The notes below the pieces were generated by a model. The model was not told where the DNA came from. It ran no database searches and saw only the letters and a program-made list of their open reading frames with translations. From Escherichia coli (GTDB taxonomy: Bacteria; Pseudomonadota; Gammaproteobacteria; Enterobacterales; Enterobacteriaceae): 64,000 nt of DNA. The stretch lies in the NCBI RefSeq assembly GCF_030384885.1, contig NZ_CP128613.1; one strand, written 5' to 3'. Of the stretch, positions 34,347-49,557 are shown in pieces (positions within the stretch are counted from its first letter, which is position 1; every line of letters begins with the position of its first letter). A program made the position numbers and the translations under genes.

Positions 34347-35114
34347 TTATTGTTTTATTATCTTAACGTGCGCCGTTCCTCCATTGACTTTTTCGAAATC
34401 TTGGAACAAGGCAGGGGCATCTTGAGTTACAATATCGTAAAGTTTTTCTGAAACTGTTCTCATTTCATAGTCACCCTGTATTGCTCCTCTCATTTCGAAG
34501 AAGTGTCGAATTGCGCGAGCATTTGCTGTGACGATTATTTTTGTCTCGGTTGCATTAGGCAATATAGAGCGAGAAGCGCTTCTTAAGGCCCGCATTTTTT
34601 CTTTTTTGTTCTCATACGATTGGTTTTCACGGATTTTTTTCAAGGATTGCTTATAAAAATCCAGACTACTTTCAATATGTTGGCACCATGACTTAAACAA
34701 TTCTGGGTCATTTTTTACTTCTATAGGGGCTACGAATTCAGCATCGGATTCATCATGATACTGTTGGGATAACTGGCTATATGAAAAACCAGCTCTATGC
34801 CGAACTAGCTGGTGTGTAAATGCACGAGATACCCCAGTAATTAAAAAGGTCCAGTTCAAATGTTCTAAGACACTTTCATGCCCTTGAATAATTAAATTGT
34901 TGATATATTGACTTGTAGTCCGTGGAGACTGCTTATCCTCTCCAAAAGACATATAACATAGCCTGCCAGCGGCCTCTACCAGAAGCTCAGCTTCGGTCGC
35001 CTGCCCTTTGCGAACCCATTGCAATGATGATGTGTTTAAAAAATCATCAAAAACATTACTTTCAAATGAAGGGTGTGATATGCATTTTACTGATAAATCA
35101 GAGATTTTTATCAT
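34347..35114 (-). CDS. ThyX-family (flavin-dependent thymidylate synthase, Thy1 domain) homolog
   Basis: 255 aa; signature RHR-x8-S (LVRHRAGFSYSQLSQQY), upstream GHESVLEH and downstream TANARAIRHFF blocks align with canonical ThyX (GHETPFEH ... WFRHRIASYNELSGRY ... TVNARSLMNF). Low GC. Confidence 0.75.
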   Translation of the reverse strand: MIKISDLSVKCISHPSFESNVFDDFLNTSSLQWVRKGQATEAELLVEAAGRLCYMSFGEDKQSPRTTSQYINNLIIQGHESVLEHLNWTFLITGVSRAFTHQLVRHRAGFSYSQLSQQYHDESDAEFVAPIEVKNDPELFKSWCQHIESSLDFYKQSLKKIRENQSYENKKEKMRALRSASRSILPNATETKIIVTANARAIRHFFEMRGAIQGDYEMRTVSEKLYDIVTQDAPALFQDFEKVNGGTAHVKIIKQ

Positions 35115-35116
35115 TT

Positions 35117-35902
35117 TTACTCCCGTATAGCTTTTGGGGTGCTTACTTTAGCATCAACCTTTGGTTCGTTTGATTTAGCATTTTTTAGTAATTCAACGGT
35201 GCTTTTTAGGCTATTTATTTCATTTTGTTGAACTTTTATTGTTAATTCAAGATCTTTTGTACTACTGACATTACTGGATACTATTTGAAATAAGAAAGGA
35301 ATTGCTAGGGTTATCAACGTTAGCATTAAGGCTGCTATCGCAATTATAAAGCCAGTTTTTTTCGCAATGATTTTATTGATTTCTTTCGGAAGTCGTTTAT
35401 CAAGTCCTGCAAAATCCTTTCCCATTCTAGAAAGTTGATCATCATCCAATTTATTTACGATTTTTCCTTGGTAACCTTTAGTCGGTATTATTGTTTTAAA
35501 TAATAACATTCGGGCTACTGCTGAATTTTGTGTCAATGAGAATGGTTCTTTTGACATATTTACAAGATATATTGAAATTATGCCATTATATCCAGGGTCA
35601 ATATGCCCTGGATTCGTCATGATAATTCCATTTTTTGATAGTGTGTTTCTTGGAAATATTACACCAGCTAAATTTTTTGCAAGTTGGAATTTTTCATTTA
35701 ACTCTAATATTACAGTTTCCCCTGGCATCAGGATATGGTTGTTACGTGTTTTTTTATTGTCTTGACAGTCTGGTATATGTATTGTTTTTACAGAGAGATC
35801 AATGCTTGCAGATTGAACTTTAAATGTTCCATTTAATACCGTTAATGGATCAAAAATGTTGCCTCGCTGAATTTCATCATTGATTTCTATTTCAGACAGC
35901 AT
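35117..35902 (-). CDS. dCTP deaminase/dUTPase-superfamily protein with C-terminal transmembrane helix and coiled-coil tail
   Basis: 261 aa; residues 1-150 align with E. coli Dcd (ASIDLSVKT / LMPGETVILEL / GHIDPGYNGIISIYLVNMSKEPFSLTQNSAVARMLL vs ATVDVRLGN / LHPGELALAV / [34 protein letters not shown]); C-terminal hydrophobic segment GFIIAIAALMLTLITLAIPFLF then K/E-rich tail. 2-bp gap to the thyX-like gene. Confidence 0.75.
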   Translation of the reverse strand: MLSEIEINDEIQRGNIFDPLTVLNGTFKVQSASIDLSVKTIHIPDCQDNKKTRNNHILMPGETVILELNEKFQLAKNLAGVIFPRNTLSKNGIIMTNPGHIDPGYNGIISIYLVNMSKEPFSLTQNSAVARMLLFKTIIPTKGYQGKIVNKLDDDQLSRMGKDFAGLDKRLPKEINKIIAKKTGFIIAIAALMLTLITLAIPFLFQIVSSNVSSTKDLELTIKVQQNEINSLKSTVELLKNAKSNEPKVDAKVSTPKAIRE

Positions 35903-35928: not shown

Positions 35929-36942
35929 TTATAAATTAGCCAGAGGGTTTTTTATTACTGCATCTTCAAGATGCTCTGGGGAAAAATGTGCATAAATCAT
36001 AGTCATTTTTATATCAGAGTGGCCTAAAATATCTCGTAAAACCAAAATATTACCACCATTCATCATAAAATGGCTGGCGAATGTATGGCGCAGAACGTGA
36101 GTGCATTGGCCCTCTGGTAACTCAATGTCAGCTCGCTTTACTGCTCGTTCAAAGGCTTTTCTGCAAGGAGTGAATAACTTCCCTCTGTTCTTAGGGAGTT
36201 CGTCATACAGATCCTGAGATATCGGCACGGTACGGTTTTTCTTGCCCTTAGTCTTGGTATAGGTGATCCGGTATTTCGATAACTGATGGCCCTGCAGATT
36301 TTCGGCTTCACTCCAGCGCGCGCCGGTGGCCAGGCATATTTTTGTAATTAAAAGTAGACTGGGGCTTTGAGAATCAGCACAGGCATCCAGCAGACGTTTA
36401 ATTTCTTCCGGGGTCAGGAACGACAGTTCACCCTCAGCAATTTTAAATGTTGGCAGCCCGGCAAGCGGATTGGGGGCTGACCAGTGGCCCAACTTTTTCA
36501 GTGTGCCAAAAACAGATGATAGGTTGCGCTGTTCAAGGTTTACAGTGCGGGGCTTAACGGGCGACATAAGCGTGCCCTCTTCATTTCGCACTTCACCTTT
36601 TAGCCGCGCTTCTCGGTATTTAGTAAAATCACCGGCTGTCAGCTCTGAGGCGATGGGATCGCCTAGACCATTACAGATAATTCTAAGTTTCGCCATGAGG
36701 CGCTTGGGGTCTGCGAGTGTTTGACCATACAGGGAATACCACTGCTCAATTAATTCTGATAGGTGTCGCCGATCTTCCTTTTCCCCCAGCCATGGCTTTT
36801 TGTTCACTTCTTCCATTGTGAAGCTTTCAAAAGCAATGGCTTCGCCTTTCGTAGCAAATTGCTTACGCACGCGCTTGCCATTGCGTCCATGGGGATAGCA
36901 CTCGCACAACCATTTACCGTTTGGCTGTTTTCTGACAGTCAT
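35929..36942 (-). CDS. int: Tyrosine recombinase, P2/186-type prophage integrase
   Basis: 337 aa; N-terminal GRNGKRVRKQFATKGEAIAFE, catalytic-region motifs (LATGARWSEA, HVLRHTFASHF, MIYAHF) typical of P2-like integrases. Confidence 0.85.
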   Translation of the reverse strand: MTVRKQPNGKWLCECYPHGRNGKRVRKQFATKGEAIAFESFTMEEVNKKPWLGEKEDRRHLSELIEQWYSLYGQTLADPKRLMAKLRIICNGLGDPIASELTAGDFTKYREARLKGEVRNEEGTLMSPVKPRTVNLEQRNLSSVFGTLKKLGHWSAPNPLAGLPTFKIAEGELSFLTPEEIKRLLDACADSQSPSLLLITKICLATGARWSEAENLQGHQLSKYRITYTKTKGKKNRTVPISQDLYDELPKNRGKLFTPCRKAFERAVKRADIELPEGQCTHVLRHTFASHFMMNGGNILVLRDILGHSDIKMTMIYAHFSPEHLEDAVIKNPLANL

Positions 36943-36944
36943 GT

Positions 36945-37577
36945 TTAGATACTCTTTATTACTTTGACTGCACGCCCAATAACTTCCACATCATCAGTAG
37001 AGCACTCGAAAGACGCTTCATCTTGATTTACTACAATCTTATTGCCGGGAATCCGCATGATTTTTGCAACAATAATCATTCCATCAATATTGATAAGCCA
37101 GAATCCATTGCTGACCTGTTTAATTGATTTATCGATGAGATAACAATTAGTAGGGGTTTCTAAGAACATCAATTCTTCATAATCTGCAGGTAATATGCTG
37201 TGGTCTAGGAAAATCTCTTCATCAATACTGAGTTGTCCATTCTCCAGGGTTCCTTTAGGAATAGCTGGAGTTATGAGTTTGGATAACGGTTTAATTGCTT
37301 GTTTGTTCTCATTATGAGAACTTTTCTCAGGCTCAGCTCCTCCTTTCATGCTTCCCTGTCCTGTAGCTAACCAAAGCAACGAAACACCGGTTTCTAGTGC
37401 GCACTGAATTATCCAGTCAGCAGGAAAGCTGTCACGTAACACTCTGTTTGCCATAGTGCTTTTTGAGACATTCAGGTGCTCGCTTAATGCCTGCTTAGTT
37501 GTGAATCCATAAGCCTCAAGCAGCCTTTCAATAGCTGCCTTACCTCCCGTATCGGAACCCATTCTGATGTTTAACAT
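36945..37577 (-). CDS. Phage CI-like repressor (186 CI-type HTH)
   Basis: 210 aa; HTH region LSEHLNVSKSTMANRVL; immediately upstream of and overlapping int start (cI-int operon), divergent from apl/cox-like gene. Confidence 0.7.
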   Translation of the reverse strand: MLNIRMGSDTGGKAAIERLLEAYGFTTKQALSEHLNVSKSTMANRVLRDSFPADWIIQCALETGVSLLWLATGQGSMKGGAEPEKSSHNENKQAIKPLSKLITPAIPKGTLENGQLSIDEEIFLDHSILPADYEELMFLETPTNCYLIDKSIKQVSNGFWLINIDGMIIVAKIMRIPGNKIVVNQDEASFECSTDDVEVIGRAVKVIKSI

Positions 37578-37698: not shown

Positions 37699-37941
37699 AT
37701 GAGTACTGATATTTCAATTCGTGTACCAAAAGAGATGGCTACGCCTGCAGAGTTCGCAGAGTGGGAGGGTATTTCCCGCGGCTCTGTTTACCAAAAAATT
37801 CACCATGGTCAACTTGCTAAGTACATGGTCAAGAAAGAAAAAAACAAAGGCCGCGTAAGCCTGCGTTATCTGATGTACAAAACCGATCAGGTCCGTGAAT
37901 CCCTCGGTCATTCCAACTTCCGCGTCATTGTTGGTAAGTAA
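37699..37941 (+). CDS. Apl/Cox-like excisionase/lytic switch regulator
   Basis: 80-aa basic protein divergently transcribed from cI-like gene, HTH-like EWEGISRGSVYQKI. Confidence 0.6.
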   Translation: MSTDISIRVPKEMATPAEFAEWEGISRGSVYQKIHHGQLAKYMVKKEKNKGRVSLRYLMYKTDQVRESLGHSNFRVIVGK

Positions 37942-37973: not shown

Positions 37974-38483
37974 ATGTTTGATTACAAGATTTCCAAACAT
38001 CCGCATTTCGATGAAGCCTGTAGGGCTTTTGCACTGCGCCACAACCTGGTGCAACTGGCAGAACGTGCAGGCATGAATGTGCAGATTCTGCGGAACAAGC
38101 TGAACCCAGCTCAACCTCATTTATTAACTGCACCAGAAATCTGGTTGCTTACCGATCTGACTGAAGATTCAACGCTGGTAGATGGTTTTCTGGCTCAGAT
38201 TCACTGCCTGCCATGTGTACCGATTAATGAGGTGGCAAAAGAGAAACTGCCACATTACGTCATGAGTGCAACCGCAGAGATCGGGCGTGTCGCGGCAGGT
38301 GCGGTTTCTGGCGATGTAAAAACCAGTGCAGGCCGTCGTGATGCGATCAGCAGCATTAACTCTGTTACACGACTGATGGCGCTGGCTGCTGTTTCATTGC
38401 AGGCCCGTTTACAGGCTAATCCTGCGATGGCGAGTGCGGTTGATACCGTGACTGGCCTCGGTGCTTCATTCGGTTTGCTGTGA
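37974..38483 (+). CDS. CII-like phage regulatory protein (186 CII-like)
   Basis: 169 aa; position and size match phage 186 CII; HTH-like N-terminus. Confidence 0.6.
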
Positions 38484-38489
38484 GGTGCT

Positions 38490-38787
38490 TATGCTGATGA
38501 AAGAACCATCATTTGCATCGCTCCTGGTAAAACAAAGTCCGGCAATGCACTACGGTCACGGCTGGATCATGGGTGAGGATGGTAAACGCTGGCATCCGTA
38601 CCGTTCACAAGATGAATTGCTGTCTGAATTGACCACGAGGAAACGGAGAAAGTCCAAATGTATGCGGCAGAAAATAAAGTGGTTTATCACTTTCGTTACA
38701 GAGGGGAGAATTATTCAGTACCTGAAGATGATTTGCTCTGTTGCTATCCGTCGTTGTCGGGCGATGGTAGCTACTTTTTCACGCTAA
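38490..38787 (+). CDS. Hypothetical small phage protein (possibly shorter; overlaps next ORF out of frame)
   Basis: ORF begins MLMKEPSFASLLVKQSPAMHYGHGWIMGEDGKRWHPYRSQDELLSEL; distal part overlaps 38658-38882 and may be a read-through artefact. Confidence 0.35.
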
Positions 38788-38882
38788 AGGATGGAACCTT
38801 TATACGTGGTGAAAAAGTACAAGAAGTGATGCGTATAAAGACATCACCTCTTGAACGTTATCGGCGAAATATTTATCGGTAA
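38658..38882 (+). CDS. Hypothetical small phage protein
   Basis: 74 aa, preceded by GGAGAAAG Shine-Dalgarno. Confidence 0.5.
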   Translation: MYAAENKVVYHFRYRGENYSVPEDDLLCCYPSLSGDGSYFFTLKDGTFIRGEKVQEVMRIKTSPLERYRRNIYR

Positions 38883-39121
38883 CGATCTATCAGTGTCTGT
38901 ATCAGATGAGTGAATTCTTGTTGTTTAACCGAACCTAAAGGAAGTTTGTTTAATTCTTCGCGGAGGAGCTCAAAAAATGCTGATTGATTTGCTGAGTCAG
39001 TTCGAAATAAGGAGTGGATCAGACCTGAAACAAGAATTCGTTGAACAGCAACCTCATCGCGAAGACTGGAGATCTCGTTTTCAAGTTGCTCTATACGCTC
39101 TCTTTCAACCGGGTTCAACAT
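38873..39121 (-). CDS. Hypothetical coiled-coil protein (82 aa), opposite strand to early operon
   Basis: ORF MLNPVERERIEQLENEISSLRDEVAVQRILVSGLIHSLF...; heptad-like pattern; opposite orientation to flanking genes. Confidence 0.4.
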   Translation of the reverse strand: MLNPVERERIEQLENEISSLRDEVAVQRILVSGLIHSLFRTDSANQSAFFELLREELNKLPLGSVKQQEFTHLIQTLIDRYR

Positions 39122-39202
39122 TGATGATTCCTTCTAGCTATCAATATGTTGGTAATGGATCATATCAAAAATTTTTTAGTAGATGTGTTGTGGGATGCAT
39201 AA

Positions 39203-39544
39203 ATGGCTATTGAAGGCACTGCGGCGACTGTTCCATTAAGCCCCGGTGAACGCCTGAATGGACTTAATCACATTGCGGAGTTAAGGGCGAAAGTTTTTGG
39301 CCTGAATATTGAGTCAGAGCTTGAGCGGTTTATTAAAGATATGCGTGATTCACGGGATATTAATAGCGAACAAAATAAACGGGCACTGGCTGCCATATTC
39401 TTTATGGCAAAAATTCCAGCTGAACGTCATAGCATCAGCATTAATGAGCTGACCACTGACGAAAAGCGGGAGTTGATTAAAGCAATGAATCATTTTCGTG
39501 CAGTGGTGAGCTTATTTCCCAGACGGCTAACCATGCCGAATTAA
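39203..39544 (+). CDS. Hypothetical phage protein (113 aa)
   Basis: ORF in early-operon orientation. Confidence 0.5.
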   Translation: MAIEGTAATVPLSPGERLNGLNHIAELRAKVFGLNIESELERFIKDMRDSRDINSEQNKRALAAIFFMAKIPAERHSISINELTTDEKRELIKAMNHFRAVVSLFPRRLTMPN

Positions 39545-40072: not shown

Positions 40073-40926
40073 GCACCATCCTGAAATGGGCGGGAAATAA
40101 AACTGCCATAATGTCCGAACTGAAAAAACATCTTCCTGCTGGCCCGCGACTGGTTGAACCTTTCGCGGGTTCCTGTGCTGTGATGATGGAGACGGATTAT
40201 CCCAGCTATCTGGTTGCGGATATTAATCCTGATTTAATCAACCTCTATAAAAAGGTTGCCGCTGATTGTGAATCGTTTATATCTCGCGCCAGAGTTTTAT
40301 TTGAGATCGCAAACAGGGAGGTGGCTTATTACAACATAAGGCAGGAGTTTAATTACTCAACTGAAATTACTGATTTCATGAAAGCGGTATATTTCCTGTA
40401 TCTCAATCGTCACGGTTACCGTGGTTTATGTCGCTATAACAAGAGCGGGCATTTCAACATTCCCTACGGTAATTATAAAAATCCGTATTTCCCTGAAAAA
40501 GAAATTCGCGCATTTGCAGAAAAGGCCCAGCGAGCAACGTTTATCTGCGCCAGCTTTGATGAAACGCTGGCGATGTTGAAGGCGGGGGATGTGGTGTATT
40601 GCGATCCGCCGTATGACGGTACGTTTTCCGGCTATCACACTGACGGCTTCACTGAAGATGACCAGTATCACCTGGCATCTGTTCTTGAACATCGGTCATC
40701 AGAAGGACATCCGGTCATTGTTTCTAACAGTGACACATCCCTGATCCGTTCGCTGTATCGCAATTTTACTCACCACTACATCAAGGCAAAACGCAGCATC
40801 GGTGTGGCAGCTGGCGAGGGTAAATCAGCAACAGAAATCATTGCTGTTTCCGGGCCGCGCTGCTGGGTGGGATTTGATTATTCGCGTGGCGTGGATAGTT
40901 CTGCCGTGTACGGAGTACGTGCATGA
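40069..40926 (+). CDS. DNA adenine methyltransferase (Dam-like, D12 class N6-adenine MTase)
   Basis: Protein [25 protein letters not shown]...EPFAGSCAV... and DPPY catalytic motif (VYCDPPYDG). Confidence 0.85.
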
Positions 40927-43337
40927 GTCATGCCGATATGAACAACTGCTGCGGCTTTAACGAAGCTGCCGCATCGTTCTCATGGAACAGCCCGAAAAAG
41001 GCCATTAACCCTTATCTGGACCCGGCGGAAGTTGCGCCGGTTTCTGCGCTTTCAAACCTGATCACTCTGTACGCTACTGATAACGAGCAGGAACAACTGC
41101 GCCGCGAGGCACTGAGTGATCAGGTCTGGGAGCGTTATTTCTTTAATGAATCCCGTGATCCTGTCCAACGCGAAATGGAGCAGGATAAGCTCATTAGCCG
41201 GGCAAAGATGGCGCATGAGCAGCAGCGTTTTAATCCAGACATGGTCATTCTGACTGACGTCAACGCCCAGCCTTCCCATATCAGCAAGCCGCTGATGCAA
41301 CGTATTGAATATTTCAGCAGCCTGGGCAGGCCAAAGGCTTATTCCCGCTATTTGCGTGAGACGATTAAGCCATGTCTGGAACGACTGGAGCATGTACGCG
41401 ACAGCCAGCTATCTGCATCTTTTCGTTTTATGGCAAGCCATGAAGGGCTGGACGGTCTGCTGATCCTGCCTGAAATGAGTCAGGATCAGGTGAAACGCCT
41501 GTCTACCCTTGTCGCTGCGCATATGAGCATGTGTCTTGATGCCGCTTGTGGTGATTTGTACGCCTCCGATGATGTTAAGCCAGAAGAAATCCGCAAGACA
41601 TGGGAAAAGGTGGCTGCAGAAACCCTGCGACTGGATGTCATACCGCCTGCGTTTGAGCAACTCCGCCGGAAAAGAAACCGCCGCAAACCTGTGCCTTATG
41701 AACTCATTCCGGGTTCGCTGGCGCGTATGCTGTGCGCCGACTGGTGGTATCGGAAATTATGGAAGATACGTTGCGAATGGCGGGAAGAGCAGTTGCGTGC
41801 TGTCTGCCTGGTCAGCAAAAAAGCATCTCCCTATGTCAGCTATGAAGCCGTGATGCATAAACGTGAGCAGCGCCGTAAGTCGCTGGAGTTTTTCCGTTCT
41901 CATGAACTGGTGAACGAAGACGGCGACACGCTGAACATGGAGGATGTGGTAAACACCAGCAGCAGCAACCCGGCGCATCGCCGCAACGAGATGATGGCCT
42001 GTGTTAAAGGCCTAGAGCTTATCGCGGAAATGCGTGGTGACTGCGCCGTTTTCTACACCATCACCTGTCCGTCACGTTTCCATTCCACGCTAAATAACGG
42101 CAGGCCAAACCCGACCTGGACCAACGCGACAGTAAGACAAAGCAGCGATTATCTGGTCGGCATGTTTGCTGCATTTCGTAAGGCTATGCACAAAGCCGGG
42201 TTGCGCTGGTATGGCGTGCGGGTGGCTGAGCCGCATCATGACGGCACAGTTCACTGGCACCTGTTGTGTTTCATGCGCAAAAAAGACCGCCGCGCCATTA
42301 CTGCATTGTTGCGTAAGTTTGCCATCCGTGAAGACCGCGAGGAGCTGGGCAATAACACGGGGCCACGCTTTAAGTCTGAGCTGATAAACCCGCGCAAAGG
42401 AACGCCGACAAGCTACATTGCGAAATATATCAGTAAGAATATTGACGGGCGTGGTCTGGCTGGCGAGATCAGTAAGGAAACGGGTAAATCCCTGCGTGAT
42501 AACGCTGAATACGTTAATGCCTGGGCGTCTCTGCATCGTGTTCAGCAATTCCGCTTCTTTGGCATTCCGGGGCGTCAGGCTTACCGTGAACTGCGATTGC
42601 TGGCTGGTCAGGCGGCAAGGCAACAGGGTGACAAAAAAGCAGGTGCGCCGGTACTGGATAACCCGCGCCTTGATGCCATCCTGGCTGCTGCTGATGCTGG
42701 TTGTTTTGCCTCCTACATCATGAAGCAGGGCGGCGTACTGGTTCCCCGCAAATATCACCTCATCAGAACCGCTTATGAAATCAACGAAGAGCCGACCGCC
42801 TATGGCGATCACGGTATTCGTATTTATGGCATCTGGTCACCCATTGCAGAGGGCAAGATCTGCACTCATGCAGTGAAGTGGAAAATGGTTCGTAAGGCCG
42901 TTGACGTTCAGGAGGCGGCAGCCGACCAGGGCGCTTGCGCCCCTTGGACTCGTGGCAATAACTGTCCCCTTGCTGAAAATTTGAACCAACAGGAGAAAGA
43001 TAAATCAGCTGATGGGGACACCAGAACGGACATTACCCGCATGGATGACAAGGAGTTGCACGATTACCTGCACAGTATGAGCAAAAAAGAGCGCCGGGAA
43101 CTGGCTGCAAGGTTACGCCAGGTGAAACCGAAACGGCGTAAAGACTACAAACAGCGAATTACAGACCATCAGCGACAGCAGCTCGTCTATGAACTGAAGT
43201 CCAGGGGATTTGATGGCAGTGAGAAAGAAGTCGATTTGCTCCTTCGCGGTGGCAGTATTCCGTCAGGAGCAGGCCTGCGTATTTTCTATCGGAACCAGCG
43301 TCTGAAGGAAGATGATAAGTGGCGGAACCTGTATTAA
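40923..43337 (+). CDS. Phage replication initiation protein (186/P2 gene A-type endonuclease)
   Basis: 804-aa protein following Dam in early operon; size and position match P2/186 protein A. Confidence 0.7.
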
Positions 43338-43489
43338 TTACGCGGGTTAACAATTCGTGCCCTTAATAATACCAGGCATATCAGGCTGATGAATGTAAAA
43401 AAACGTTTTACATCAGTAAGATTATTATATACTGTAAATATAAACAGTGGTTATCTATACAGTATTGCTTTGGTGTCATAGGAGGAAAG

Positions 43490-43678
43490 ATGCAGGACTA
43501 TTTTTTGGAGTCTTTGAAGCTCCAGCGCATTGATTTTTTTCTTAAGCTTGTAGCGGCTAGTGAGTGTAGTGATGAAGAGAAGGGGCTGGCTCTGCAGTGG
43601 GTTTCTGAACTGACAGATGAACTCATGGCAAAAATCAGAACCCACGAATACAACCGCTCAATGGATGTCATCAGCTGA
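43490..43678 (+). CDS. Hypothetical protein (62 aa)
   Basis: Small ORF with GGAGGAAAG RBS upstream of ATG. Confidence 0.45.
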   Translation: MQDYFLESLKLQRIDFFLKLVAASECSDEEKGLALQWVSELTDELMAKIRTHEYNRSMDVIS

Positions 43679-43688
43679 GGTGACTTTT

Positions 43689-43922
43689 ATGCGCATTGAA
43701 ATAATGATCGATAAAGAGCAGAAGATTAGCCAGTCTACCCTGGACGCCCTTGAATCCGAGCTTTACCGCAATCTGCGCCCCCTGTATCCCAAAACGGTAA
43801 TCCGTATCCGTAAAGGTAGCTCTAACGGTGTGGAACTGACCGGACTGCAACTGGACGAAGAAAGAAAACAAGTGATGAAAATTATGCAGAAGGTGTGGGA
43901 AGACGACAGCTGGCTGCATTGA
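43689..43922 (+). CDS. DinI-family protein
   Basis: 77 aa MRIEIMIDKEQKISQSTLDALESELYRNLRPLYP...VWEDDSWLH, resembling DinI (MRIEVTIAK...DALAGELSRR...W...). Confidence 0.7.
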   Translation: MRIEIMIDKEQKISQSTLDALESELYRNLRPLYPKTVIRIRKGSSNGVELTGLQLDEERKQVMKIMQKVWEDDSWLH

Positions 43923-44035
43923 TTTTGTCAATAGACGCTTGTTTTTACTAATCAAAAAGGGTTACATATGAGTGAGAGGCGATGTCAATCAGATATCGCC
44001 TTGTTTTTTGTCAAGAAAAGAATAATAGGCTAAAA

Positions 44036-44713
44036 ATGAAAATTAATAATGTAGCGTTACCAATATCTCTTGCTGTAATCCTAACTGGTTGCGTGCCACA
44101 TGCTTCTAACCGAAATATCACTGCTATTGAAGTGGTGAAGCCTGCTATTGGGCAAAGTGCTACCGCCTACATGGGCGATCCCATTATCACATCTGCTACT
44201 GGATTTAAAACGGACGTACTAGAACTTGGTGCGGCTAATGGTGCATTGTCTTCTATCGCTGCTGGTACATATTGCAGTGAGGGGAATGGAATTTACCGCA
44301 ATTATCATAACCCTCAAGCTGTTGCGTTAAAAAATCTCTATGGGCAAATCGGTAACTATGTTGATTATGTTAGTTACGATGCTGCAAAAAATGAGATATC
44401 ACCGCCAAATGGTACTTCTTATACTGCATCAGAAATTTCTATCAAACGTGTTCCTGATGGGCTGTGTCGAGTTAGTAACTCATTGGTTAAGACTATCGAA
44501 TACAATGGAAATGCAGGCGGTGTAATGAAGTTCACCTATCGTGAATTTGCAAACGATATGGCTCGTGCAGCATTTACAACAGATTTTTCTGTAGATTCTA
44601 AGGGAAGTGACGTTATCGCTTACAAAGGTGCCAAGTTCAAAGTGAACAAGGCTGATAACTCGTCTATTTCTTATACAATTATTTCTGGCTTTGACAAGGC
44701 TGTCACGTTCTAG
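44036..44713 (+). CDS. Predicted lipoprotein (225 aa), function unknown
   Basis: Signal peptide with lipobox (MKINNVALPISLAVILTGC); low-GC; located in cargo region after replication gene. Confidence 0.6.
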   Translation: MKINNVALPISLAVILTGCVPHASNRNITAIEVVKPAIGQSATAYMGDPIITSATGFKTDVLELGAANGALSSIAAGTYCSEGNGIYRNYHNPQAVALKNLYGQIGNYVDYVSYDAAKNEISPPNGTSYTASEISIKRVPDGLCRVSNSLVKTIEYNGNAGGVMKFTYREFANDMARAAFTTDFSVDSKGSDVIAYKGAKFKVNKADNSSISYTIISGFDKAVTF

Positions 44714-45038
44714 GTTTCACGCTTACTGAGTATGTTACGATTTTGCACATTCTGCATAAACGCGCATGTCTATGCTGCATGAGATCGCATGATCGTTTGA
44801 GGATCTTTTGTGTTAAGGCCCGCCAGTTCTGGCGGGCTTTTGCGTAGATCATGCAGGTGCATGAAAACCACTACATAAAGCGGGCAGGCGTGGCGGGGAT
44901 ACGAGCGCGCGTTATGACAAATAGATGATTAGCCTGATTTATTCACAGCTGTATAAATGATCACCTTGTAATTAGGTAAGTAATGTCTTCTATTATCATT
45001 GATTTGATAGGATTAATCTGTTTTTTGAGGATTAGAGG

Positions 45039-47375
45039 ATGATTGAAGAGGTAGTTATTGACAAAGTAGGCTCATATAATGGCCCTACTCAGCTTTTACA
45101 TGGGCTTTCTAAATTTAACTATTTATATGGAGCTAATGGTGCAGGTAAAACAACTATAAGTAAAATTATTAATGACCCTGAACAATATCCAACATGTCCG
45201 ATTAAATGGAAAAATAATATATCTTTAATAAGCTACGTATATAATAAAGATTTTGTTGAAAGAAATTTTAGTCAAGATAAAATTAAAGGTGTATTTACCC
45301 TTGGTAGCGATCTTAAGGAGGATGAAGAGAAATTAATATCTCTTGAAGAAGAAAAAAATAAGCTAATAGAATCTATTATAGCAAAGGAAAAGCTAATAGA
45401 TGGTGGTGATAATATATTAGGCGTTGTTAAACAAATCGAAGACCATGAAAAATCTTTTAAAGATTCATGTTGGAAGCAAAAAGTAAAACATGATAATGTG
45501 TTCTCAAAGGCTTTTGAGGGATTAAGGAATAGTAGTGAAAAATTTAAAGCTAGAGTGTTGGCTGAGTATGAAAATAACACATCAGAAGTTTGCTCAATAG
45601 CAGAGCTAATTGAGAAAGCAAAAATTGTTTTTTCTACTGAATTGACATCACATGTATCAATTACAATTCCATCCTTCAATGGGATAGATGATATTTTGAG
45701 TAGGGAGATTTGGAGTGAGCGTATTCTAGGGAAAAAAGACGTTAGTGTTTCAGACTTAATTACAATGCTCAATAACAGTGATTGGGTTAAGGAAGGTTTA
45801 ACATATTTCAGTAAATCTAATCCCAAGTGCCCATTCTGCCAGCAGGATGTAAATGATAATATATTTGATAATCTATCATCATATTTTGATAAAACATATG
45901 AGTTAAAAAAAAGAGAAATCGATGCATTGGTTTTACAATATGAACATCAACTTAATAATATCTTGCAGGCGATAGATGATATAAGGGCGATTAAATCTCC
46001 ATTCATAAATTATGAAGTGTTTGAGGATAAGGCTAAGATAGTATTATCTGAATTAAACAAGAATTTTGAATTGGCAAAAAATAAACGCAATTTTTTAAGT
46101 GAATCAGTTCATTTTAGTGACTTAAGTGAAGTTGTTGATGATTTTATTTCTTTTTTGAATGATTCAAATCTATTGATAGATAATAATAACAAAATACACA
46201 GTAATAGAAAGGTAGAGGCTAGTAATCTTTCTAATCAGATATGGGCATATATCGTAAAGGTGGAGTTAAAGTCTGAAATAACTTCTTACCGTAGCGAATC
46301 TGATAAATTTAATAGGAAGTTACAAGGGCTTAAATCTGGGTTAGAGGAAGACAAAAAGAAGTTAATGTTAAATGCTTCGGCTATTGAGGCAATTGAGTCT
46401 AATAAAACCAGTACTCTTCCAACTATTACAAAAATTAACAAGATTCTGGATTCTTATGGCTTCAAAAATTTTTACTTAAAACCCTCCGAAGATAAAAAGC
46501 ATTATATGATAGTGAGAGATAGTGGAGATAATGCTCGTACAACCCTTAGCGAGGGAGAAAAGACATTTATCACTTTTTTGTATTTTTATAGCCTTGTTAG
46601 AGGGAGTGATAATGCATCAGGTGTTTTAGATGATCGTGTTGTAGTATTTGATGATCCAATTTCAAGTTTAGATAGTGATATTCTGTTTATTGTAAGTTCG
46701 TTGATTAAAGATTTAATGGAGGATGTTCGTAAGGATGAAGGAAATATTAAGCAAATTATATTCCTTACACATAATATTTATTTTCATAAAGAGTTGACTT
46801 TTAATACTAAAAGATCCGGTAATCAAGCAATGAAAGAGGAGACTTTTTGGATTGTAAGGAAAAAAGGGAAGGTCTCATATCTTGAAAAGTGCGAATCAAA
46901 CCCAATAAAAACGTCTTATGATTTGCTCTGGTGCGAATTGAGAAGAACAGATATTAATAATAATACTATACAAAATACAATGCGAAGGATTTTGGAGAAT
47001 TACTTTAAGATATTAGGTGGGATGGATATTAGGAAGCTTGAATGTCATTTTTATGGTGATGAAAAAATCATATTTAAATCTTTAGTGTCATGGATTAATG
47101 ATGGTTCTCATTTTGCAGGTGATGATCTTTATATGAATTTAGATACGGAGTCTGTGCAAAAATATTTAATTGTTTTTCAGAAGATATTTGAGTGTAGTGA
47201 GCATACTGCCCATTACAAAATGATGATGGGTGAGTTTTATAGACCGTTAAATGAGTCACTTCATCTACAAGATGAGTTTGATATTGATGATAGTGCGAAT
47301 GATGAGTATGCTTCGTCAAAAATTGAGATAGAAGATGGAATAAACACATCTCTACATAGTAATACATATTTGTAA
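45039..47375 (+). CDS. PrrC/RloC-like ABC-type ATPase (AAA_13-like) with CxxC motif and C-terminal putative HEPN-like domain
   Basis: 778 aa; Walker A GANGAGKTT, Walker B VVVFDDPISSLD, H-loop-like FLTHN, long K/E-rich coiled-coil insert containing CPFC; C-terminal domain with RKLECH (R-x4-H) and RRILE (R-x3-E) motifs; very low GC. Confidence 0.65.
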   Translation: MIEEVVIDKVGSYNGPTQLLHGLSKFNYLYGANGAGKTTISKIINDPEQYPTCPIKWKNNISLISYVYNKDFVERNFSQDKIKGVFTLGSDLKEDEEKLISLEEEKNKLIESIIAKEKLIDGGDNILGVVKQIEDHEKSFKDSCWKQKVKHDNVFSKAFEGLRNSSEKFKARVLAEYENNTSEVCSIAELIEKAKIVFSTELTSHVSITIPSFNGIDDILSREIWSERILGKKDVSVSDLITMLNNSDWVKEGLTYFSKSNPKCPFCQQDVNDNIFDNLSSYFDKTYELKKREIDALVLQYEHQLNNILQAIDDIRAIKSPFINYEVFEDKAKIVLSELNKNFELAKNKRNFLSESVHFSDLSEVVDDFISFLNDSNLLIDNNNKIHSNRKVEASNLSNQIWAYIVKVELKSEITSYRSESDKFNRKLQGLKSGLEEDKKKLMLNASAIEAIESNKTSTLPTITKINKILDSYGFKNFYLKPSEDKKHYMIVRDSGDNARTTLSEGEKTFITFLYFYSLVRGSDNASGVLDDRVVVFDDPISSLDSDILFIVSSLIKDLMEDVRKDEGNIKQIIFLTHNIYFHKELTFNTKRSGNQAMKEETFWIVRKKGKVSYLEKCESNPIKTSYDLLWCELRRTDINNNTIQNTMRRILENYFKILGGMDIRKLECHFYGDEKIIFKSLVSWINDGSHFAGDDLYMNLDTESVQKYLIVFQKIFECSEHTAHYKMMMGEFYRPLNESLHLQDEFDIDDSANDEYASSKIEIEDGINTSLHSNTYL

Positions 47376-47424
47376 TTTTATTGCAATTGCCAGTAGCAAC
47401 AATACGGTACTGGCAACTAATATT

Positions 47425-47965
47425 TTAGTTAAGCTCATATGGAGAAAATTCTATAAGTTTCTCCCCGAGCCATGCGTTTATTTCCATAAATCGTTTTTGC
47501 AAAGGAATTAATTCATTTATCACAAAAACCTTACTAGCCTTCTCCACATCCCCAAACCCCCCAACATTATTAGGCATTATCCCCATCATTTGCGGCGGCA
47601 CACGGTGTGCCGCCATCATGTCGTCCCGGCTCACGTTCTTGATATTCAGAAACTCATCCTTCGCCGCGACTTCTGACAACGGGATAATCTGAAGCCCGTC
47701 CTTTTTGCCGTTAGGAGAGTACATAAACAGGTTGCGGAAGTTGCCTGGCCCTTTGGCACTTTTCATTGCGTTGCGGAGGTTGTTCACATCTTCTTGGTTC
47801 TGTGCGGCATCGGTCATGTACATGATGAAACCTGCATGGCTGCCGTTGATGTAATACTTACGGCGGAACAGTGTGGCGGACTCGTTGAGCAGGGCTGACG
47901 GGATGGCAGAGAGATAACCTGGCAGGCCGTAGATCTCCTGGTTGATGTCCGGTTCCGCCCTTAAT
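47425..47965 (-). pseudogene. Phage portal protein (P2 gpQ-like), 3' fragment only
   Basis: C-terminal portal-like sequence (...FRNLFMYSPNGKKDGLQIIPLSEVAAKDEFL...); reading frame extends upstream without start until sequence character changes near 47965. Confidence 0.6.
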
Positions 47966-48153
47966 CATCTCAACCATGCGTTACAGCTCGATCCCCGCTG
48001 TGGCGTGAAAAAAGACAAACAGCAGCTGGAGCGCAGACTGCGCAATGACAGCCGCTGACAGAACGTGCCCCCGCGCACGGGCGGCACGGGGTGGCGAAAG
48101 GCACAGCCACATCAAAACCCCGTCCACCGCCCTTTATTTCAGGAGAAAGCAGC

Positions 48154-48354
48154 ATGAAGTTTGTTGCGCCAGAACAGGCACCGGAACAGGCGGAAATCAT
48201 CAGAAACACGCCGTTCTGGCCTGATGTGGACCTGTCGGAGTTTCGCAGTGTCATGCGCACTGACGGCACGGTGACGCAGCCGCGTTTAAAGCAGGTTGCG
48301 CTGTCGGCAATTTCGGAGGTCAACGCACCGATACGACCATTTGCATTGATGTAA
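48154..48354 (+). CDS. Hypothetical small protein in prophage remnant (66 aa)
   Basis: ORF MKFVAPEQAPEQAEIIRNTPFWPDVDLSEFRSV... preceded by AGGAG RBS; identity not recognised. Confidence 0.4.
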   Translation: MKFVAPEQAPEQAEIIRNTPFWPDVDLSEFRSVMRTDGTVTQPRLKQVALSAISEVNAPIRPFALM

Positions 48355-48497
48355 ACAAAGTGAAGTTCTTCCATGTGAAACCTCTTTGCATGATTTCAAG
48401 ATGGCGACAGGCAAGATGGACGCAAAAGTCTGTCGCCATTTTGCCGCCACTACCAAAGAAAAAGGGGCTACGCTTTCACGTAACCCCTTGATTTATT

Positions 48498-48542
48498 TGG
48501 TGGAGCTGGCGGGAGTTGAACCCGCGTCCGAAATTCCTACAT
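48498..48542. repeat. attR: ssrA 3'-terminal att core
   Basis: TGGTGGAGCTGGCGGGAGTTGAACCCGCGTCCGAAATTCCTACAT, repeated at 34140-34183. Confidence 0.85.
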
Positions 48543-48860
48543 CCTCGGTACTACATGCTTAGTCAGTCTTTACATTCGCTTGCCAGCTGCGGACGGACAC
48601 GCCACTAACAAACTAGCCTGATTAAGTTTTAACGCTTCAACCCCAGGCAGGGCTTCCACGCGATCTCTTTTGGGTTTGACCTCTCTTGATCCCCGTCCTA
48701 AGAGCGGAGGCTAGGGAGAGAGGGCTCTAAGCAGGTTATTAAGCTGCTAAAGCGTAGTTTTCGTCGTTTGCGACTATTTTTTGCGGCTTTTTACGAGGCC
48801 AACCGCCCCTCGGCATGCACCTTGGGTTTCGCAAATCCCGTCGAATCCAGAATCAGCCCC
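48498..48860 (-). ncRNA. ssrA: tmRNA (SsrA)
   Basis: Reverse complement matches E. coli tmRNA from 5' GGGGCTGATTCTGGATTCGACGGG to 3' ...GGGTTCAACTCCCGCCAGCTCCACCA, including the tag-coding region. Confidence 0.95.
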
Positions 48861-49074: not shown

Positions 49075-49557
49075 TTAACGGTGGGCGTTTTTCATGATAC
49101 GCGCTTTATCCACCTGCCATTCGCGTTCTTTGATGTCTGAACGTTTATCGTGCTGTTTCTTACCTTTAGCGACGCCGATTTTCACTTTGCACCAGGCATT
49201 TTTCCAGTACAGGGAGAGCGCCACTACGGTATAGCCTTCTCGATTGACGCGACCGTACAATGAGTCCAGTTCGCGCTGGTTGAGAAGTAACTTGCGGGTA
49301 CGGGTAGGATCGCACACCACATGCGTGGATGCCACAGCCATTGGCGTGATGTTAGCGCCAAACAGAAATGCTTCTCCATCACGTAGAAGGACGTAGCTGT
49401 CGCTGATATTGGCTTTTCCTGCGCGCAGGGATTTAACCTCCCAGCCTTGCAGGGCAAGTCCCGCTTCGAACTCTTCTTCGATAAAGTATTCGTGACGGGC
49501 GCGCTTGTTAAGCGCGATGGTCGCTGAACCAGGTTTATGTGCTTTTTTCTTCGTCAT
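49075..49557 (-). CDS. smpB: SsrA-binding protein SmpB
   Basis: 160 aa [33 protein letters not shown]...; upstream of ssrA on the same strand. Confidence 0.95.

Follow-up and report, generated by a model that had tools for sequence, protein, structure and literature searches.

Genomic Context of the Locus

The analyzed window, i.e., the whole stretch of 64,000 nucleotides of Escherichia coli DNA, contains between 35.9 and 48.5 kb a phage-186-like (Peduoviridae) element. On its minus strand, int (35929–36942) and cI (36945–37577) were recognized from the ORF listing, Pfam, and PHROG. The plus strand then carries an apl/cox-like gene (37699–37941), cII (PF06892; 37974–38483), the gene of the cell-division inhibitor Fil (PF10893; 38491–38787), and a gene of the early operon that encodes a 74-aa protein of phrog_4312 (38658–38882; PHROG E = 2.6e-48), which is conserved in all lineages. 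The replication-side block begins with a DUF5347 gene (39203–39544, plus strand), assigned by Pfam (PF17282, E = 1.8e-33) and synteny, and continues on the same strand with DUF2732, TraR/DksA-like, and dam genes up to gpA (40923–43337). Directed against the pR early operon, the minus-strand ORF at 38873–39121 (hereafter ORF82) encodes an acidic, all-helical protein of 82 aa at the boundary that separates the genes for the lysogeny decision and host takeover (cII, fil, phrog_4312) from those for replication (DUF5347 to gpA), with the DUF5347 gene as its divergent neighbor. A matching layout is found in the early region annotated for phage 186, in which cII, fil, and dhr are followed by the terminator tR1 and a DUF2732 gene. 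An identification of the phrog_4312 product as Dhr was rejected, as the two proteins have no detectable similarity and belong to different PHROGs.

Within the window, the prophage is a remnant without late genes after gpA; an intact version is found in E. coli 504237. The region 3′ of gpA (43337–48860) contains an ORF of 243 aa, the gene of an AAA_13 protein of 778 aa, and a fragment of 132 aa that matches a phage portal protein weakly, with a score below the cut-off. Directly after this portal-like fragment lies ssrA (tmRNA; 48498–48860), and a 160-aa ORF at 49075–49557 is, judged by position only, a putative smpB. The AAA_13 protein (45039–47375, plus strand) matches the PADLOC candidate defense family PDC-S06 (E = 1.5e-266) and has weaker similarity to LmuB and PrrC; its gene, located between gpA and the portal fragment, occupies the old/tin cargo position of P2. 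Just outside int, a minus-strand gene pair (34347–35902) encodes two proteins, one of 261 aa that is dCTP-deaminase/dUTPase-like and one of 255 aa that resembles the thymidylate synthase ThyX; PADLOC returned no match for them. In relatives, this position beside int is taken by other cargo (KAP NTPase, AAA_15/21 with DUF4435, unknown ORFs). To the left of the remnant, the gene of a 1551-aa AIDA/pertactin/autotransporter (Ag43-like) adhesin is located at 29324–33979 (plus strand), and a tRNA-Met gene at 26188–26263.

The sequence-only reading of this locus had pointed to an awkward overlap of plus-strand ORFs at 38490–38882. This overlap is real: the phrog_4312 gene starts within the fil frame, which remains open to 38787. 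Only the first ~56 of the 98 codons of this frame are Fil-like (Pfam E = 1.3e-21 over residues 5–51), and the remaining tail is unconserved between lineages. The overlapping, out-of-frame phrog_4312 ORF is conserved with a length of 72–76 aa and the motif CYPS..DGS.FFTL.DG..FRG..V.EVMR. The overlap can thus be explained, because the tail of fil is not conserved whereas phrog_4312 is. PGAP annotates fil as a pseudogene lacking the C-terminus and often skips phrog_4312, and phage annotators call a Fil of 98 aa. The 98-aa Fil calls, the pseudogene label of fil, and the skipped phrog_4312 appear to reflect a systematic error in the annotation of these phages.

ORF82 as a Protein-Coding Gene

ORF82 extends from an ATG at 39121 to a TAA at 38875–38873 and comprises 82 codons on the minus strand, exactly as the earlier reading had stated and as given in the ORF listing. 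This length alone means nothing, because ORFs that reach 82 aa or more number 129 in the window and still about 48 in shuffled sequence. The frequency of such ORFs is one argument for regarding ORF82 as no gene at all but a chance open antisense frame; another is offered by the plus strand, where an ORF of 78 aa (38977–39213) faces the 5′ portion of ORF82 and is open in several lineages. Conservation, however, speaks strongly against a chance frame. The sequence-only reading had named conservation of the ORF in related prophages as a check, and indeed frame, start, and length are kept at ~70% nucleotide identity: ORF82 has exactly 82 codons across lineages that share 67–74% of their nucleotides, and homologs with protein identities down to 28% retain the same length and position. 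The differences between lineages fall mainly on third codon positions (e.g., 16/14/50 and 21/13/40 by position), with a pS of 0.60–0.83, a pN of 0.17–0.21, and a dN/dS of 0.12–0.17 where dS was computable. The pN/pS ratio of ORF82 (0.21–0.30, and 0.22–0.35 for the first 48 codons) resembles the values for cII (0.13–0.21) and DUF5347 (0.19–0.32). Across ORF82 each of the other five frames contains 2–10 stops. The codon-position pattern and a pN/pS of 0.2–0.3 favor the ORF82 frame over the opposite ORF at 38977–39213, whose pN/pS is 1.1–1.8. This high ratio arises because the second position in the codons of the plus-strand ORF falls on the wobble position of the ORF82 codons, and with pN/pS above 1 the plus-strand ORF was rejected as a gene and regarded as a shadow frame of ORF82. 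By this pattern of selection the chance-frame explanation is effectively refuted, and we attach next to no probability to it; judging from its substitutions, ORF82 is a genuine conserved protein-coding gene.

The heptad-like pattern that had been noticed in the translation is also real. It spans residues ~10–38 (I10-L13-I17-L20-V24-(Q27)-V31-L34-L38) and is kept across an alignment of 16 family members, in which, over residues 4–41, one heptad position is 92% and a second 51% hydrophobic. AlphaFold2, run with the 16 sequences, modeled ORF82 with a pLDDT of 89.5 and a pTM of 0.59 as three helices (residues 4–41, 43–57, and 65–81), and in this model the coiled-coil pattern would be limited to the first, N-terminal helix of the three. 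Nearly invariant positions in the family are E6, L20, I31, L34, and L57, and the isoelectric point is below 7 in 15 of the 16 members (4.75–6.73; 7.88 in the remaining one). ORF82 has no transmembrane segment, and no DNA-binding, catalytic, nuclease, or NTPase signature was found. Sequence searches of Pfam, NCBIfam, PADLOC, and the PDB gave nothing meaningful, and in PADLOC no family reached E ≤ 1 for ORF82, phrog_4312, or DUF5347; no homology, fold match, or defense-system model points to a specific activity. The base composition of ORF82 differs from that of the surrounding phage genes, and its partner phrog_4312 is equally low in G+C (0.41 and 0.40, respectively, vs. 0.50 in the early region; GC3 of 0.34 and 0.35 vs. 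0.57 in gpA).

Family and Distribution

ORF82 is already present in RefSeq as the hypothetical protein WP_000934004.1 (PGAP; E. coli 504237, 120899, and W), and it matches phrog_26925 over its full length (residues 1–82 on profile positions 1–82, E = 1.6e-57), as do all 16 aligned family members match this PHROG. Homologs with 62–71% amino acid identity occur in Lelliottia, Klebsiella, Pseudescherichia, and metagenomes; all have 82 codons and the same place and orientation as in the window. An exhaustive search with a profile, covering 1.84 billion representative proteins, recovered 14 clusters, all with lengths of 79–86 aa, and a word-indexed search of 5.8 billion proteins recovered 23 clusters, all from Enterobacterales and including Pantoea and Pectobacterium. 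Among 5426 complete E. coli genomes, 65 (about 1%) contain the ORF82 cassette. IMG/VR, searched with a five-member alignment, provided 25 loci with members of the family, and a tblastn search of 50,697 deposited phage genomes with two family members as queries found no relative of ORF82. An identical protein is encoded in a prophage of the laboratory strain E. coli W (NC_017635, 963923–964171) that has a different cI and apl, and ORF82 is therefore not tied to immunity specificity. Literature searches found no paper mentioning WP_000934004 or 8GKV, and nothing relevant on fil and dhr of phage 186. As it stands, ORF82 represents a catalogued yet uncharacterized family of prophage proteins and is an ordinary accessory gene that only a minority of the 186-like prophages possess.

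Pairing with phrog_4312 and the Mosaic Junction

ORF82 had been described as convergent to the early genes, and its 3′ end indeed shares 10 nt with the stop-codon end of the phrog_4312 gene, the 74-aa ORF on the plus strand. A convergent and adjacent phrog_4312 gene accompanies the ORF82-family gene in 43 of 43 loci, which correspond to roughly ten distinct lineages with protein identities down to 28%; in the distant lineages, the partner was confirmed as phrog_4312 by hmmscan (E of 1e-20 to 1e-5). In the clade represented by the window the order is cII-fil-phrog_4312-[ORF82]-DUF5347, and in four other loci (L015, L016, L018, and L020) it is cII-phrog_4312-[ORF82]-fil, followed by DUF5347 or a RepB-like gene. 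The position of the pair relative to fil thus differs between clades, and the two genes travel as a unit. On the other hand, phrog_4312 DNA is present in 586 of the complete E. coli genomes and ~89% of these lack ORF82 (586 vs. 65), so that the pairing could also reflect linkage by descent and not function. Both functional coupling and simple linkage could thus account for the association.

Comparison with related phages further illustrates the mosaic nature of this junction. In Salmonella phage RE-2010 fil is joined directly to DUF5347, and in E. coli phage vB_EcoM-813R9 and Klebsiella phage 4LV2017 phrog_4312 is present at the junction and ORF82 absent. The window is set apart from the latter two phages by a mosaic cassette of ~390 bp (approximately 38815–39202) made up of ORF82, an A+T-rich spacer of 81 bp, and the 3′ end of phrog_4312 in a diverged form, and megablast matches to phages are split into two pieces around it. 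A local rearrangement, one of three explanations offered by the sequence-only reading, is therefore correct in the sense of a historical mosaic indel, with the gene pair found on differing sides of fil, and does not hold in the sense of a recent lesion.

Signals around ORF82

The 81-bp spacer between the starts of ORF82 and DUF5347 (39122–39202) has a G+C content of 0.31. Read from the sequence, a Shine–Dalgarno motif AAGGA is located on the minus strand at 39129–39133, 7 nt upstream of the ATG, and has equivalents in other lineages (GGGCA, GGGGA, or AAGGA). Further upstream on this strand a putative extended −10 element TGATATGAT (TGnTATGAT; 39159–39167) is conserved in four lineages, without a good −35 element; the motif TGnTAT(G/C)(A/C)T, located some 37 nt upstream of the ATG, is common to these lineages, which are otherwise ~70% identical. 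Their upstream spacers are poorly conserved apart from the −10-like motif, a G-rich Shine–Dalgarno sequence, and a second motif that resembles CTGATAGC. The distant members have TTnAAA-17-CATAAT upstream, as read by eye. A scan for consensus promoters called none upstream of ORF82, and for this reason we infer its promoter only from these motifs.

Some further elements of the spacer deserve mention. A direct repeat TTGATA (CTGATA elsewhere) occurs at 39169–39164 and 39144–39139, with its copies 24–25 bp apart; both are conserved across the four lineages and fall within the putative promoter and leader of ORF82. The segment 39146–39172 (ATGTTGGTAATGGATCATATCAAAAAT) deviates by two mismatches from the CII site of the 186 type (ATGTTTG-N13-CAAACAT) and lies over the putative promoter; the genuine pE site is located at 37974–38000. 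Control by CII was rejected as a conserved feature, since the site is missing from the sister lineages, where pE sites of their own are retained, and its geometry is unlike that of pE. From its sequence, the CII-like site may be due to chance or to a lineage-specific acquisition. No LexA box was seen by eye in the spacer.

On the 3′ side of ORF82, a terminator-like stem-loop with a 13-bp stem (38820–38853, minus strand) begins 20 nt past the stop codon, inside the 3′ end of phrog_4312. It has a minimum free energy of −20.3 kcal/mol (z = −4.9) and is followed in the window by the U-rich tract UACUUUUUCA, which is weak in other lineages. Across eight sequences 90% of the cells are paired, and three pairs show double changes. 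The hairpin is kept in five ORF82-bearing lineages and, with compensatory changes, also in 813R9 and 4LV2017, both of which lack ORF82. Its interpretation as an ORF82-specific terminator was rejected for this reason, i.e., the phages without ORF82 keep the hairpin. As far as can be judged from these comparisons, it may serve phrog_4312 or the early transcript, and it may also end or stabilize the ORF82 transcript. Its position is analogous to that of tR1 in phage 186, but it lies inside a coding sequence and is without a U-tract on the plus strand. Rfam contained no matching family, with only a chance snoRNA match elsewhere (E = 0.83).

Possible Functions of ORF82

Among the three options of the sequence-only reading, i.e., a moron, an antisense-encoded regulator, or a local rearrangement, the moron fits ORF82 best. 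The presence or absence of the gene at the same junction and its low G+C content agree with this classification, and the promoter- and terminator-like motifs that a moron should possess are putative. With moderate confidence, we regard ORF82 as a moron-type gene that would have its own extended −10 promoter, would be expressed in the lysogen, would encode a protein-binding product, and is possibly linked to phrog_4312. Leftward transcription would start in the 81-bp spacer, at a sigma-70 promoter of the extended −10 type, and would stop at or close to the hairpin located in the 3′ part of phrog_4312. Since ORF82 faces pR, its product would be made while pR is repressed, as in the lysogen, and its expression would be damped by head-on transcription once pR fires. 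The lack of any DNA-binding or enzymatic signature suggests that the protein is probably a protein-binding modulator, which might dimerize via its N-terminal heptad helix. Given the obligatory pairing, its most likely target or functional partner would be the phrog_4312 product or a host pathway that both proteins share; the neutralization of leaky or incoming early-gene activity is one conceivable role.

In a more specific form of this model, phrog_4312 and ORF82 might constitute an undescribed two-gene module of 186-like phages that combines an early lytic protein with a lysogen-expressed coiled-coil antidote, a suggestion that we make tentatively and consider rather unlikely to hold in full. 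The antidote might bind and neutralize the phrog_4312 product or counteract it on the same host target, a part of the scheme that is equally speculative. Similarly, one can only conjecture that the pair tunes host takeover or the lysis–lysogeny decision and that head-on transcription silences the antidote at induction.

If the locus were chiefly an RNA-level device, with the encoded protein being secondary, the leftward transcript from the spacer would interfere head-on with read-through from pR into the genes for replication and base-pair with the phrog_4312 message at its 3′ end. Such a transcript would indeed be fully complementary to the pR read-through and overlap the last ~60 nt of phrog_4312, and the opposite orientation is kept in every locus (43/43); in addition, the analogous site in phage 186 harbors tR1, which according to its record is anti-terminated in early lytic development. 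The protein encoded by ORF82, however, is under purifying selection comparable to that on cII and DUF5347, with synonymous sites near saturation, and the start codon, the Shine–Dalgarno sequence, and the exact length are conserved; furthermore, no Rfam family matches. We consider both the RNA as the main product and its proposed interference and pairing improbable. As an RNA role does not exclude a role of the protein, the antisense-encoded regulator of the earlier reading is disfavored only as a pure RNA regulator (protein-level selection, no Rfam family) and may contribute at the RNA level. Even less probable in our view is a function of the protein against incoming phages, in superinfection exclusion, anti-phage defense, or anti-defense. 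ORF82 is a patchily distributed accessory gene of a temperate phage and unusual in its composition, which would suit such a role, and the P2-like elements at these loci bear cargo of the defense type nearby (in the window, the PDC-S06 protein; in relatives, KAP NTPase and OLD-like genes). Yet no PADLOC model matches ORF82, which has neither a transmembrane segment nor a nuclease or NTPase motif, its site is not among the cargo positions seen (beside int; between gpA and portal), and the fixed pairing with phrog_4312 would be left unexplained.

A further possibility, which we rate as doubtful and on a par with exclusion, is that ORF82 is a prophage anti-adaptor related to IraP that binds RssB and stabilizes RpoS in lysogens, independent of phrog_4312. 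The N-terminal coiled coil of IraP is thought to contact RssB, and the L9S substitution weakens its inhibitory activity (PMC4428439). Other anti-adaptors have been reported in association with prophage or horizontally acquired DNA. ORF82 and IraP are alike in size (82 and 86 aa), in their N-terminal coiled coil, and in their restriction to Enterobacteriaceae, their profiles can be aligned collinearly, if weakly (core IVISGLL vs. IVVTALL), and they differ in that the iraP gene lies beside phoA whereas ORF82 is prophage-borne. At a permissive threshold IraP (PF10796) is the Pfam family matched by most members (3 of 16, best E = 0.02), but no member reaches the cut-off of PF10796. An hhalign comparison with the IraP alignment was collinear over 66 columns (13–81 vs. 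15–80) with P = 5.1e-4 and a probability of 31%, values that are uncorrected for the pick among ~25,000 families, and its score of 24.6 exceeded those of 200/200 column shuffles and 199/200 heptad-block shuffles. IraP was, however, picked from 24,736 families, of which several helical ones are expected by chance at P ~5e-4 to 5e-3, and with multiple testing accounted for the resemblance falls short of all significance thresholds. Moreover, exhaustive searches with the ORF82-family profile recovered no IraP, BLASTP of ORF82 against IraP gave E = 1.9, and the IraP structure 8gkv is absent among the structural matches listed for ORF82. If the lead were true, it would reveal a prophage route to RpoS stabilization.

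Compared with these alternatives, the moron-type gene paired with phrog_4312 is the reading that we prefer. What had been a raw ORF is now a defined family with a clear distribution and a strict genetic partner, and this strict convergent pairing is the one feature of ORF82 that merits an experiment. Small prophage genes that oppose the lytic operon and are unannotated or listed as hypothetical are where functions in lysogenic conversion, exclusion, and regulation tend to hide. Should the pairing prove functional, the switch region of 186, which has been studied well, would gain a control element of a new kind.

Comparison with Known Systems

Morons are known from lambdoid phages as extra units of promoter, gene, and terminator inserted between conserved genes. 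ORF82 resembles them in its presence or absence at a fixed junction among close relatives, in its low G+C content, and in having promoter- and terminator-like signals and an orientation that would allow expression while the lytic operon is off. Unlike morons, it is not free-standing but inherited over deep divergence as a convergent pair with a gene of the early operon, and its “terminator” lies inside phrog_4312 and exists without ORF82. With fil and dhr of phage 186 it shares the location between cII and the replication genes, the small size, and the dispensability, and phrog_4312 occupies the position of dhr after fil. ORF82 is, however, encoded on the opposite strand, and phage 186 has neither ORF82 nor phrog_4312. 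Leftward transcripts facing an early promoter have a well-known precedent in the OOP antisense RNA of lambda, and convergent transcriptional interference is established for pR and pL of 186. Like OOP, the inferred ORF82 transcript would start just before the replication genes and end in the 3′ end of an early gene; unlike OOP, it is much longer, belongs to no Rfam family, and encodes a conserved protein.
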